Made by a program: the position numbers and the translations under genes
Shown here: in pieces, positions 29,111 to 32,976 of the stretch
How the letters are laid out: each line of letters starts with the position of its first letter
How positions within the stretch are numbered: the stretch's first letter is position 1
Notes under the pieces: generated by a model
The model's database searches: none
Told to the model about the DNA's origin: nothing
What the model saw: the letters and a program-made list of their open reading frames with translations, nothing else
Source of the DNA: Promethearchaeota archaeon
Lineage (GTDB): Archaea; Asgardarchaeota; Lokiarchaeia; Sigyniarchaeales; SOKP01
Reading direction: 5' to 3'
DNA length: 64,000 nucleotides
Assembly: GCA_019058245.1 (NCBI GenBank)
Contig: JAHPZJ010000027.1
Span: 10,344 to 74,343 of the forward strand

Positions 29111-29440
29111 TTAATCAATTAAATACTTATCTCTCGTTATTAAACAAGAAAATAAAGTATAAACCATTATTGATAGTTGTATCAAATAGAGGATACTACC
29201 AATTAAAGTAATTATTAAATCGTTGATTGGAGGTATTGGTTGCATGTCGATAAAATCAAGGATATAATTATAACCGGTTGATATTGAAGAAATTAGAAAT
29301 GCTATAACTAAATAAAAGAGAATTACTGTAGAAGTCTGGTCTAAACTAAATCCAAAAAACTTTAACTCTTCATTTCTCTGATCATCCACGGATATCACCT
29401 TATCTATGAAAAGTAAATATATGTATTTAAAATTAATCAA
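29111..29440 (-). CDS. membrane protein carrying module 1 of the same repeat
   Basis: 109 aa. KFFGFSLDQTSTVILFY plus two TM segments plus SCLITR. The TAA at 29111..29113 is in frame with the downstream ORF. Confidence 0.55.
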   Translation of the reverse strand: MINFKYIYLLFIDKVISVDDQRNEELKFFGFSLDQTSTVILFYLVIAFLISSISTGYNYILDFIDMQPIPPINDLIITLIGSILYLIQLSIMVYTLFSCLITRDKYLID

Positions 29441-29504
29441 TATAGGTTTAGATTTAAAAATTGAGAAAGTTTTTTAGAATTATCAACTTATTAATAATTA
29501 AATC

Positions 29505-29606
29505 AGCCCAGTGGTGTAGCGGTCAAGCATCGGGGGCCCTGATAAGTCTAAACGTCTAGGATCTTGGAGATACCCCTGAACCACGGTTCGAATCCGTGCT
29601 GGGCTA
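29505..29606 (+). tRNA. intron-containing tRNA, probably tRNA-Gln(CUG)
   Basis: Acceptor AGCCCAG/CUGGGCU (A1:U72) plus A73; D-arm GUGU-AGCGGUCAA-GCAU; anticodon stem GGGGG/CCCCU; T-arm CACGG-UUCGAAU-CCGUG. 36 nt lie between the anticodon-stem halves. A canonical 37/38 intron (29543..29571) gives the loop CCCUGAA. Confidence 0.8.
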
Positions 29607-29649
29607 TTTTTATACTGGTATTCTTTGTTATCTACTTATATTTATATAA

Positions 29650-30411
29650 TTGAATTTTCTTATTCTTAATTACAAACTAAGGAAAATGATAGAAATGTTA
29701 ATTGATCCAAAAGTAAATAAATTGATAATCTTTAATGGTGGCGGTGGTATTGTTGAAAGACAGATTAAACTATCCTTAAATCAAGGTTTAAATAAATTTG
29801 AGATTGCCAATGTACCCGCTTCATTTGATCCTAATTCTGCAGATATCCAATTAGAATTTATTAATCCAGGAGATAAAGATTCAATCACCTTACAGCAAAC
29901 AATTGTATCACTTCCAGATAGAAATACTTCTCAGCAGATTATAGACCGAGAAAAATCCGCAGCAACCAGTATTATTTCATATGCTATTGATTTTACGCGT
30001 GAATTAAGAGAAAAAGTTTCTAATATATGTGAAGCAAGTTCTTATAGAACATTTGCGGATATGAAGGGTGTATTTGATTTTATAATAAGTGCTTCAAAAG
30101 TGGGTGAAATAATTGTAAAGATAATATATTTCATTGCAGATCTCCGTATTAAATGGCAAACTACATTGCAAGTTGATATAAAAAATGATGGCAAAAATGC
30201 TCAAATCGAAGGATTTCTCGTTGTGGATAATCAAACAGGATTTTCTTATGAAAATGTAGAACTTGGTTTTGCAATTTTCGAGTTACCGAGTACTGACATG
30301 GAGATACAATATGATAATTTTGGTGAAGCCGAAGAAGAAATGGCTCAACAGGCGATTTCGAGCCTATCAAAACAAAAAAGAACTCAACGAATGAGGAATT
30401 TAATGCTCTGA
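29650..30411 (+). CDS. hypothetical protein
   Basis: 253-aa ORF from a TTG start; ATG codons 11-15 codons further in are alternatives. No firm motif. Confidence 0.5.
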   Translation: MNFLILNYKLRKMIEMLIDPKVNKLIIFNGGGGIVERQIKLSLNQGLNKFEIANVPASFDPNSADIQLEFINPGDKDSITLQQTIVSLPDRNTSQQIIDREKSAATSIISYAIDFTRELREKVSNICEASSYRTFADMKGVFDFIISASKVGEIIVKIIYFIADLRIKWQTTLQVDIKNDGKNAQIEGFLVVDNQTGFSYENVELGFAIFELPSTDMEIQYDNFGEAEEEMAQQAISSLSKQKRTQRMRNLML

Positions 30412-30412
30412 G

Positions 30413-31102
30413 GTGAAAAAAGTGAAAGCTAATGTACCTACTCGTAAAAAAATAAAGCTTAATTGGTTTAAATCGAATTGTGCATTGAATATTGAGCGCA
30501 AGATTGCAATTGAATATAATACCAATTCAGTAACTTATAATAAAATAACTTGGGATGTTTTAGTTCAATATGTTCTCACAAAAGAGGGAGATCCTAAAGA
30601 AATTCCTGCAAATTCCCCAATGACGCTCTACAAGGGAGGCTTACCTTTCCTTTTCTTATCAACTTCAGTAACAATTGGGAATAAAATAATCTCAGAGGAA
30701 CTGATTGATTCAGATATTACTGTTGACGATGATATTATAAATGTTGATGAAGGAGAAGATAAAGTCACCTACGAAGATGCTCGGGATCCTAAAGAGCATA
30801 TTGAGGTAAGAACTCGACTTGATAAAATTACAAGGAAAATTACTATTGAAAACAAACTAGACAATGAAATAGATTTAGAACTTAATTTCAAACAAACAAA
30901 AGATGTTTCTTTTATAAAATCACAACCTGAACCATCAAAAGTCGAAGAACCTAATTATAATTATAATATAAAAATACCTTCAGAGCAAAAAGGCAGTGTA
31001 ATCTTAGATCTTCAAGCAAAAATTGTGAAAAGAGTTACAAGAATTAAACCAGAATATTTAAAATTAGAAGAAAATAGAATTAATAGGTTTAAAGATAAAT
31101 AA
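30413..31102 (+). CDS. hypothetical protein, translationally coupled to 29650..30411
   Basis: 229-aa ORF. GAGGTGA overlaps the upstream TGA; GTG starts are possible at 30413 or 30422. Confidence 0.5.
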   Translation: MKKVKANVPTRKKIKLNWFKSNCALNIERKIAIEYNTNSVTYNKITWDVLVQYVLTKEGDPKEIPANSPMTLYKGGLPFLFLSTSVTIGNKIISEELIDSDITVDDDIINVDEGEDKVTYEDARDPKEHIEVRTRLDKITRKITIENKLDNEIDLELNFKQTKDVSFIKSQPEPSKVEEPNYNYNIKIPSEQKGSVILDLQAKIVKRVTRIKPEYLKLEENRINRFKDK

Positions 31103-31285
31103 CTAATTTTTTTTATTTTAAGCAAAAAAATTTTGATATTTTAGGTTGTCCCTAGTACATTGGGATTTTTTTTCTATATTTGATATCTATTAAAATTCAA
31201 AAGTATAGGTATAAAACATTTAAAATTACAAATGTATTTTTATTACATAATTAAAACTTAAATTAATATAAAAAGTAGAAGTCCA

Positions 31286-31537
31286 ATGAAACTGGAACGT
31301 ATTAAAATTGAAAAAAAAAGATTTCTTACCCTTACGGTTATCTTCATAATAGCAGGGTCAATTCTTCTTGTTTTATCTGGTATTTGGGTTGTATCATGAG
31401 GTGAAATCGTGTATTCTTACGAATATTTAATGATTCCCGCAATAATATGCTATGTGGGGGCAATTGCTTTTTTTATAGTATATTTAATAGTAGTTATAAT
31501 GCAATTTCGAATGAAAAGAATAAATCAAGCAAATTAA
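31286..31537 (+). CDS. candidate small membrane selenoprotein, copy A (UGA at 31397..31399 read as Sec)
   Basis: ATG 31286 to TAA 31537 is open except for one TGA. There are two predicted TM helices. The post-TGA frame is conserved with copy B (PAIIC[YF]VGAI), and a SECIS-like element lies 48 nt downstream. Confidence 0.55.
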
Positions 31538-31584
31538 AAATTATATCGAGAAAATGAGTATATATAAGATCTAACTTGAGAAAA

Positions 31585-31637
31585 ATGATTTCTATAAAAA
31601 AATTTTAGTTATAGGATGATTATCCCCGCAAGGGACT
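31585..31637 (+). promoter_or_regulatory. SECIS-like 3' stem-loop, copy A
   Basis: AUGAU, then an 8-bp helix (31590..31597 with 31609..31616) with an A-rich loop, then UGAU, then the hairpin UCCC-CGCAA-GGGA. It is near-identical to 32052..32102. Confidence 0.5.
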
Positions 31638-31774
31638 CAAGTTTTTTTATTTATATTTATAATGAATCATAAAAAAATAATCAAGAATTTCACACACTAA
31701 TATTAAAAAGAAAAAACTGATTTATATAGAATAATTATATAATAAATTAATCAACATTTAAAGGGAAAGATTCA

Positions 31775-31990
31775 ATGAAATATAGCACAAGTAGAGAAAT
31801 ATTTTCTGGATTTACGGTTTTCTTTGTAATTATCGGTATATGTCTTCTTTTATTATCTGGTCTTATGGCTTGAGGAACACAAGTATTTCCATACGCGTGG
31901 GTTCCAGCAATTATATGTTTTGTTGGTGCGATAATTTCCTATGATTCATATAAAAAAGTAGTAAAACAAGATTCTCGAAATAAAAAATAA
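31775..31990 (+). CDS. candidate small membrane selenoprotein, copy B (UGA at 31871..31873 read as Sec)
   Basis: ATG 31775 to TAA 31990 is open except for one TGA at the position homologous to copy A. No in-frame ATG/GTG/TTG follows the TGA. A SECIS-like element lies 62 nt downstream. Confidence 0.55.
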
Positions 31991-32051
31991 ATTATGTTCC
32001 TAAAGAATATACTGATAAACTCTGTTTAATTGTCATCATTAATCCAAAAAA

Positions 32052-32102
32052 ATGATTCCTATAAAAAAATCTTAGTTGTAGGATGATTATCCCCGCAAGG
32101 GA
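32052..32102 (+). promoter_or_regulatory. SECIS-like 3' stem-loop, copy B
   Basis: AUGAU, then an 8-bp helix (32057..32064 with 32076..32083), then UGAU, then the hairpin UCCC-CGCAA-GGGA (32090..32102). Confidence 0.5.
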
Positions 32103-32120
32103 TTTGGATTACATATTTTT

Positions 32121-32480
32121 TTAACCAGTTCTTTTGATTATATGATATCCAAATTTGGACTTTACTGGTTGTGAAATCTCACCTATCTTCAAATTCGTGC
32201 ATGCATTCCAGAACTCCGGAACCATATCTCCTTTAGCAAATTCACCTAAATTACCACCTCTTTTCTTACTCGAACATGTGGAATATTGGTTTGCCAATTG
32301 CTCAAATTTTTCACCTGCCTTTAAATCCTCATAAATCTCTTGAGCTTTAGTAAATTTTTCTACTAAGATGTGACTTGCTTTAATTTTTCCTCCACGAATG
32401 GGATTCCCTCCTGTTTTTGAGCCTCCTCCTTTTGATTGTGATCCTTTTTGAAATCCCTTTCCATATTTATTTTTTCCCAT
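32121..32480 (-). CDS. parvulin-type peptidyl-prolyl isomerase with Gly/Lys-rich N-terminal tail (Par14-like)
   Basis: 119 aa. The tail MGKNKYGKGFQKGSQSKGGGSKTGGNPIRGGK is followed by a PpiC domain (ASHILV, GGNLGEF, FGYHIIKR). Confidence 0.85.
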   Translation of the reverse strand: MGKNKYGKGFQKGSQSKGGGSKTGGNPIRGGKIKASHILVEKFTKAQEIYEDLKAGEKFEQLANQYSTCSSKKRGGNLGEFAKGDMVPEFWNACTNLKIGEISQPVKSKFGYHIIKRTG

Positions 32481-32559
32481 ATAAATTCACTATAATTGAA
32501 TAAATTTAGTTAAAAATTTCTGATATACTTTTTATAAGTCAAAAAATAAGTTAAATAGA

Positions 32560-32976
32560 TTAATTGATTATGAGATACCTGAAATTCTTAATCTCTTCAA
32601 TGCTGTTTATTTCGACAACAAGTCTTTGGAATCCTTGAAGAGTTCCATCATAAACCATGAATGTGATAAAATTATTATTAACAAAATTTTGGTTTTTACT
32701 TACTATTTCTTCTTTATACTCATTTTCAATTCGGTTTAGTTTCTTTTGAACATAATGATCATTTGGAGCAACTATAATCATATTACCAATTATATTTTTT
32801 GTGATTGGGAGTAACTCGCTAGATGAATCGAGACTAGAGGATATATCCTCTGTTGACATTAAGCGTAATAAAGCATCTCGGATTAATTTAGACTTATTAT
32901 CATAATGATTTTTTGAAACAAGCTTATTTATGAACTTTTTAAGACTCTCGTTAATACTAATACTTATAATGGGCAA
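32560..32976 (-). CDS. NikR-family ribbon-helix-helix regulator (metal ligands not evident)
   Basis: 138 aa. The N-terminal RHH (IISISINESL...NKSKLIRDALLRL) resembles the NikR GYxNRSEAIRDLLR region. The C-terminal ACT-like part lacks the His cluster. Confidence 0.55.
   Translation of the reverse strand: MPIISISINESLKKFINKLVSKNHYDNKSKLIRDALLRLMSTEDISSSLDSSSELLPITKNIIGNMIIVAPNDHYVQKKLNRIENEYKEEIVSKNQNFVNNNFITFMVYDGTLQGFQRLVVEINSIEEIKNFRYLIIN

Follow-up and report, generated by a model that had tools for sequence, protein, structure and literature searches.

In the text of Mariotti et al. 2016, the lokiSECIS is described as an AUGA, a 9-bp stem, an 11-nt loop, and then GA, located near the end of the coding sequence, with A as each of the first five loop nucleotides and, as the last, an ultraconserved G that mostly follows an A (PMC4989117). 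The same class also goes by the name Asgard type I eSECIS-like element, and the type I model given in the text of Huang et al. 2024 has a GA_[G/A]A core, a stem of 7-15 bp that tolerates at most 2 mismatches, and a loop of 8-20 nt, with GA or, rarely, AA on the 3' side of the stem (PMC11227280). According to the former text, archaea have no known SBP2 homolog (PMC4989117). The selenoprotein catalogues, as far as their text goes, comprise seven families for Asgard archaea and eleven for archaea, and a small membrane protein is none of them. The classical Lokiarchaeial selenoprotein pair is hdrA-vhuD, which has a single common SECIS.

We analyzed a 64,000-nt stretch of a Promethearchaeota archaeon contig (JAHPZJ010000027.1, positions 10,344-74,343; hereafter the window), in which two paralogous small ORFs, copy A and copy B, each contain an in-frame UGA and are each followed by a SECIS-like element. 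Coordinates are window positions unless a genome and contig are named, and the genes and elements are as follows.

31286..31537, + strand: copy A ORF, paralog of copy B, 83 codons, with UGA at codon 38 (31397-31399)
31573..31643, + strand: copy A, matching SECIS three-way junction, 94.9 bits against covariance model R1
31775..31990, + strand: copy B ORF of 71 codons with two predicted helices; codon 33 is an in-frame UGA
31871-31873, + strand: in-frame UGA of copy B, proposed Sec33, 178 nt upstream of the SECIS AUGA
32040-32111, + strand: SECIS copy B, whole three-way junction, 72 nt
32121..32480, - strand: convergent parvulin gene (PPIC rotamase; Pfam PF00639, E 8e-25)

Class assignment of the copy B element

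Each published lokiSECIS feature was found in copy B, whose parts are listed here.

32040-32048, + strand: P1 closing helix, 5' strand UAAUCCAAA, from the fold; all 8 modelled P1 pairs covary
32052-32087, + strand: SECIS copy B core
32052-32055, + strand: AUGA, 5' half of the predicted kink-turn-type core, a lokiSECIS feature invariant in 17/17 aligned sequences
32052-32056, + strand: AUGAU segment, read from the sequence
32056..32064, + strand: stem, 5' strand, the U of a U.U pair followed by UCCUAUAA (32057-32064)
32065-32075, + strand: 11-nt apical loop AAAAAUCUUAG, five A first and AG last
32076..32084, + strand: stem, 3' strand, UUGUAGGA (32076-32083) followed by the U of the U.U pair
32084-32087, + strand: UGAU segment, read from the sequence
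32085..32086, + strand: GA, 3' half of the core, invariant in the 17-sequence alignment
32090..32102, + strand: mini-hairpin P3, UCCC-CGCAA-GGGA, located 3' in the junction
32103..32111, + strand: P1 closing helix, 3' strand UUUGGAUUA, from the fold and covariation
32116-32122, + strand: T7 run, likely an archaeal oligo-T terminator for copy B

The AUGA lies directly 5' of the main stem and the GA directly 3' of it. The stem consists of U32056.U32084 plus eight standard pairs (32057-32064 with 32076-32083) and therefore agrees with both published definitions (9 bp, or 7-15 bp with no more than 2 mismatches). The loop AAAAAUCUUAG has the required 11 nt, beginning AAAAA and ending AG, and the element is located in a predicted 3' UTR, close behind a coding sequence with an in-frame UGA. 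Because every published feature is present, copy B is a member of a known RNA class. The likeness to the lokiSECIS further includes the proximity to the stop codon and the apparently Sec-using, Lokiarchaeia-type genome; the difference lies in the client gene, which is outside the seven Asgard (eleven archaeal) listed families. In the searchable text of the two descriptions there is no mention of a closing helix or a YGCAA mini-hairpin (PMC4989117, PMC11227280).

More distant SECIS types resemble the element in part. As in the eukaryotic SECIS (Rfam SECIS_1, type I), a 3' UTR location is combined with a quartet, AUGA...GA, that should fold into a kink-turn, with unpaired A residues that open the apical loop, and with a helix below the core, whereas the upper helix is shorter here (9 positions) and the lower junction has an extra mini-hairpin. 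With the euryarchaeal SECIS of Methanococcales, the element shares its predicted role as a UGA-recoding 3' UTR element and a host that apparently has the PSTK/SepSecS pathway, but it lacks GC-rich stems, and the GAA_A bulge that lies between such stems in that type is absent from 32040-32111. A search of 29300-32300 with the Rfam SECIS covariance models found nothing at an E value of up to 10, no SECIS family reached its Rfam gathering score anywhere in the window, and, chance-level minus-strand snoRNA matches aside, the element is covered by no other Rfam family. The sharing of one SECIS by the tandem hdrA-vhuD genes has a counterpart in a related genome (G029), where two tandem small UGA ORFs apparently use one downstream SECIS, located 303 nt and 24 nt 3' of their stops; in the window, by contrast, each paralog has its own SECIS and its own T-run. 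Judged from the sequence, copy B is very probably a functional SECIS of known kind that serves a small membrane selenoprotein family missing from the published lists. The element itself is thus one more well-supported example of an already described SECIS class.

Architecture and covariation

An earlier sequence-only reading had delineated a SECIS-like hairpin and a mini-hairpin at 32052-32102, about 62 nt beyond the copy B stop and 18 nt before that of the convergent parvulin gene. Direct reading of the sequence confirmed all of the segment coordinates, the spacing of ~61-62 nt (start +62) from the TAA at 31988-31990, and the 18 nt between 32102 and the parvulin stop codon (32121-32123). Its three substitutions relative to copy A were also found as described: U31591 to C32058 converts U.G to C-G and A31611 to G32078 converts A-U to G.U, both with retention of pairing, and T31604 to C32071 falls in the loop. 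That description did not contain the P1 closing helix. The 3' UTRs of copies A and B have diverged beyond a conserved block of ~55 nt, and the diverged flanks are complementary within each copy: AACUUGAG (31573-31580) pairs with CUCAAGUU (31636-31643) in copy A, and UAAUCCAAA with UUUGGAUUA in copy B, the latter giving 9 pairs. The P1 sequences of the two copies are wholly different, yet pairing is kept in both, and RNAfold yielded a P1-containing fold for copies A and B (z = -3.0 and -2.2). Since the diverged flanks pair as P1, we describe the element as a three-way junction in which P1 leads through an A-rich joiner to P2, the AUGA/GA hairpin, with P3 after it.

Covariance model R1 (79 positions) was built from 17 hand-picked elements. 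In a plain MAFFT alignment of these 17, 87.6% of cells pair and both sides change in 13/20 pairs; none of 500 shuffles reached the observed pairing. When 42 elements of the genus were aligned with R1, 88.6% of cells paired, with double changes in 18/20 pairs, and sliding the partners lowered pairing to 31-54%; this alignment is fitted to the model and hence favors pairing, but the independent 17-element MAFFT alignment agrees with it. Across the 42 elements, P2 is 97% paired and 8/8 of its pairs covary, as do 8/8 of the modelled P1 pairs. P3 aligned in 42/42 elements with 94.6% pairing, is nearly invariant except for its loop-closing pair (CG, UA, or UG), and is present behind hdrA-vhuD as well. 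A compensatory change was also observed in the copy B ortholog of the related genome G104, in which U32060-A32080 is replaced by A-U. With this comparative set, the Asgard SECIS fold, closing helix and mini-hairpin included, is strongly supported by covariation.

R1 also matched, at full length and 50.8 bits, the SECIS located 1 nt 3' of vhuD in the hdrA-vhuD pair of the source genome (G000), and both genes of that pair have an in-frame UGA within Cys-rich motifs. A strict pattern (AUGA, 8/8 pairs, AAAAA....AG, GA) occurred at 3 sites in this 3.09-Mb genome and a relaxed pattern at 6, compared with 0 matches in five first-order Markov simulated genomes. Copies matching R1 were present in 54/54 genomes of the genus, at 1-9 per genome, and at least one match was found in 135/161 genomes of the class, mostly of the same family and full length among the matches listed. 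The sequence-only reading was to be refuted if identical elements turned out to be generic intergenic repeats. We found instead ~6 copies in the genome, each examined copy lying directly 3' of an ORF with an in-frame TGA, and 1-9 copies per genome is the size of a selenoproteome rather than of a repeat family, so a generic repeat does not account for the element.

The taxonomic spread of the matches was uneven. Within family f1 (14 genera), nearly every genome gave full-length R1 matches, as did one genome of another family, and no R1 match was obtained for families f2-f4 of the same order among the 19 genomes listed. The f2-f4 lineages may be without Sec or may have a different SECIS form.

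Selenocysteine machinery genes found in the source genome

The source genome is a 3.09-Mb MAG of ~28% GC that is 76% complete and has intron-containing tRNAs. It encodes SepSecS (C14:82758-84059; 472.7 bits, above the curated cut-off) and a full-length PSTK-like protein (142.7 bits, below the curated cut-off of 290.5). A direct RF01852 scan of the genome returned just ordinary tRNA-Gly and tRNA-Ser and no tRNA-Sec; the gene for tRNA-Sec(UCA) was located by BLAST with the intron-less G029/G007 ortholog and lies at G000:C14:82523-82679, ~80 nt upstream of SepSecS. It carries two insertions of ~30 nt each, introns in the D-arm region and in the T-loop. After splicing, ARAGORN called the sequence tRNA-SeC(UCA), with the 9/4 fold (acceptor stem 9 bp, T stem 4 bp), and comparison of the G000 and G029 sequences revealed compensatory changes in the anticodon and T stems. 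The intron-less orthologs in G029 and G007 are 89 nt long and score 61.1 bits against RF01852. A tRNA-Sec with a 2.9-kb intron, called by ARAGORN when introns were allowed, was rejected as spurious. The selD gene was not found in the 76%-complete MAG, and the best match to TIGR00476 (selD) proved to be hypE, adjoining hypD. An intron-split tRNA-Sec such as this one can cause covariance-model scans to score a genome wrongly as lacking the Sec trait.

The SECIS-like character originally assigned to the element is borne out by its lokiSECIS features, the covariation among 42 elements, a model common to the hdrA-vhuD SECIS, and the Sec machinery genes found.

Proposed client genes

The copy B ORF reads MKYS...GLMA-UGA-GTQVFPYAWVPAIICFVGAI..., and the predicted peptide spanning Sec33 is ...GLMA-U-GTQVFPYAWVPAIICF.... 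The UGA of copy A aligns with that of copy B. After the copy B UGA, 38 codons stay open in DNA of 28% GC, the frame is conserved as well as open (PAIIC motif), and no in-frame start beyond the UGA yields an ORF of at least 30 aa. The G104 ortholog of copy B has kept the frame, the UGA, the open frame beyond it, and the SECIS. In a profile search of relatives, homologs were confined to the genus and nearly all had exactly one in-frame TGA; the UGA occupies a single alignment column in at least 28 divergent small ORFs from 20 genomes of the genus, ORFs upstream of R1 matches included. The 28 ORFs are built alike. A basic N-terminus precedes a hydrophobic helix and then the UGA, which in most cases has Gly as its next residue; a short loop leads into a second helix, and the C-terminus is basic as well. 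The AF2 model of copy B is a helix-loop-helix hairpin (H3-32 and H42-70; pLDDT 70) in which Sec33 ends helix 1. This coding evidence points to read-through of the UGA.

The small UGA ORFs often occur in tandem arrays of 3-5 genes. Such arrays, composed of small UGA membrane ORFs that mostly have their own SECIS, were observed at L048 (G007:C17), L049 (G029:C70), and L051 (G099:C99).

The residues that replace the proposed Sec were also compared. At a second site, one orthologous pair shows a Cys/Sec swap, FIIACVLL in G029 versus FIIAUVLL in G007. At the main UGA position, Cys was seen in none of the homologs, and two-helix relatives without a UGA have Ile in G096_1 and Ala in G096_2 (L050, L054) and Ala in P0004 (by eye). 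The absence of Cys at the main site is unusual for a redox selenoprotein. P0005, which has W at the UGA position, was rejected as a Trp homolog; its gene yields the protein only when TGA is read as W, and a SECIS lies downstream.

Database searches placed the copy B protein outside known families. Pfam gave only sub-threshold matches of the ORF to unrelated membrane families; no homology to SelD, FrhA/VhuU, HdrA, FrhD/VhuD, PrxL, AhpF-N-like, DsbA-like, FdhA, and other such families was found. A word-index search of 5.8 billion proteins detected no full-length homolog, and a profile search of 1.84 billion representatives returned nothing but small membrane proteins, among them one translation with TGA read as W. 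The new part would be the client: many tiny two-helix membrane-protein genes that appear to stand outside the published archaeal selenoprotein lists.

It is conceivable, although very unlikely in our estimation, that copy B is a decaying duplicate, a pseudogene that terminates at the UGA and keeps a non-functional relic of the SECIS of copy A. Orphan copies of the SECIS were indeed seen, an example being the copy A homolog of G024, of which ~20 codons are left with the SECIS kept, and the copy B sequences of G000 and G104 differ by 17 non-synonymous versus 3 synonymous changes, a small sample with too few differences to be informative. A relic would not be expected to match R1 at full length with 85.6 bits and 8/8 stem pairs intact, to have both of its stem substitutions relative to copy A preserve pairing, or to form 9 P1 pairs from a completely different sequence; nor does decay fit with the 38 open post-UGA codons at 28% GC or with a G104 ortholog in which the ORF, UGA, open frame, and SECIS are all retained, the last with a compensatory pair change.

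Taking copy B as a selenoprotein gene with its own SECIS, two aspects are potentially new: the family of client genes and the architecture as a three-way junction. The SECIS marks genes that are beyond the reach of homology-based surveys, and the family suggests that Asgard selenoproteomes are larger than reported and different in kind, with membrane-embedded proteins as opposed to soluble redox enzymes.

Proposed mechanism and alternative explanations

What was observed (the anatomy, the covarying pairs, the neighboring ORFs with a UGA, and genes of the Sec machinery) is consistent with a mechanism in which the insertion of Sec, the kink-turn geometry, and the protein partners are predicted features. 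In this mechanism, 32040-32111 would serve as the SECIS of the small membrane-protein gene 31775-31990, within its predicted 3' UTR. By analogy with the eukaryotic SECIS, AUGA and GA should come together in the core as tandem sheared G.A pairs, forming a kink-turn topped by the 9-position stem and the 11-nt A-rich loop; the proposed three-way junction would be completed by the variable closing helix P1 and, on the 3' flank, by the conserved 4-bp P3 with its YGCAA-type loop. During translation, the folded 3' UTR element would recruit the Sec-specific elongation factor carrying Sec-tRNA(Sec), either directly or via a SECIS-binding factor, and the UGA at 31871-31873 would then be decoded as selenocysteine instead of stop. 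Sec33 would be positioned at the end of the first helix, at the outer membrane face if, following the positive-inside rule, the basic termini lie in the cytoplasm.

A broader proposal, which we advance tentatively as a real possibility just short of an even chance, is that the true SECIS is the whole three-way junction, with P3 and P1 needed to dock an archaeal SECIS-binding factor, and that the main clients in the genus are hidden, rapidly diversifying, tandemly arrayed two-helix membrane selenoproteins in which Sec ends helix 1. If this is true, the published Asgard selenoproteomes, built by homology to known families, would be substantial undercounts. The closing helix and mini-hairpin could serve as handles for finding the archaeal SECIS-binding partner, which bears on the origin of the eukaryotic Sec system.

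The T7 run directly after P1 probably ends the transcript, which would place the SECIS at the very 3' end of the mRNA. Copy A is likewise followed by a T7 run (31642-31648), and with such a run after each copy, each gene is probably its own transcription unit ending just past the SECIS. Two nucleotides of the copy B T7 run also belong to the parvulin stop codon.

With the element filling the 130-nt gap between convergent stop codons, the sequence-only reading had offered a shared terminator hairpin as the main alternative. According to this explanation, to which we give even less credence than to a decaying duplicate, conservation would reflect a bidirectional terminator structure common to the small ORF and the parvulin gene, and the SECIS likeness would be incidental. 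The T7 run follows the element on the + strand, the A-runs at 32046-32052 and 32063-32069 correspond to U7 runs on the parvulin strand, and the convergent parvulin arrangement is conserved in four relatives (G024, G009, G006, and G104), all of which would suit a terminator. A scan of 31100-32600 for a bacterial-type hairpin with T-run, however, detected 0 intrinsic-terminator-like sites on either strand; archaeal termination requires oligo-T alone. Terminators are not characterized by an invariant AUGA/GA or an AAAAA..AG loop, and the hdrA-vhuD pair has a matching element without a convergent gene. Furthermore, a run of at least 5 T follows just 15/42 elements, and many elements lie in tandem arrays with the next gene directly after them, so termination cannot explain the conservation, and the alternative named in the earlier reading is not supported as its cause. 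Going by the gene arrangement, the parvulin 3' UTR must enter the SECIS complement; the parvulin mRNA may well end inside it, as an incidental by-product.

The least probable of the explanations considered is a kink-turn RNA with another role (an L7Ae-binding regulator or a C/D-box-like small RNA), beside which the UGA is read or terminated independently; AUGA...UGA motifs are indeed common to C/D-box and other kink-turn RNAs and weak Rfam snoRNA matches overlie the element (22.9 and 17.5 bits, E 2.5 and 7.8), but these matches are far below gathering scores and on the minus strand and were judged to be due to chance, D or D' boxes and guide regions are absent, each examined element lies directly 3' of an ORF with an in-frame UGA, known selenoprotein genes included, and the distribution tracks lineages with Sec machinery.

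Other candidate SECIS sites and neighboring loci

Further candidate sites, one behind an 87-codon ORF and two near a 166-codon ORF, came from the pattern search of the source genome. One additional full-length R1 match (52.1 bits) is located at G000:C13:146106-146184 on the minus strand; an 87-codon ORF encoding a small single-helix membrane protein ends 12 nt upstream of it and has an in-frame UGA in the motif GG-U-G-C (GGUGC). This ORF may encode another small membrane selenoprotein, one whose motif is of the UxC type. On the minus strand of G000:C10:57900-61000 (L089), a 166-codon ORF that matches no Pfam family contains two consecutive in-frame UGA codons (HAD-UU-ADV; HADUUADV), and a lokiSECIS-type hairpin lies 17 nt 3' of it. 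A near-identical second hairpin was found 1.8 kb away, beside an apparent truncated duplicate. The two C10 hairpins score weakly against R1 (21-24 bits) because their P3 differs.

The locus upstream of copy A also varies between relatives. At G024:C16 (L045), the copy A homolog is cut to its last ~20 codons and, with its SECIS kept, abuts an intron-containing tRNA gene. In the window, the tRNA at 29505-29606 is parted from copy A by ORFs 29650-30411 and 30413-31102, which are absent in G024; the difference suggests that DNA was inserted or deleted at this tRNA gene. The window tRNA contains an intron and reaches 40.2 bits against the Rfam tRNA model in a search of that region by itself; it is not listed by the gathering scan of the whole window, and ARAGORN with introns mislabels it as tRNA-Pyl(cta). 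Its G024 ortholog has an extra insertion in the T-loop.
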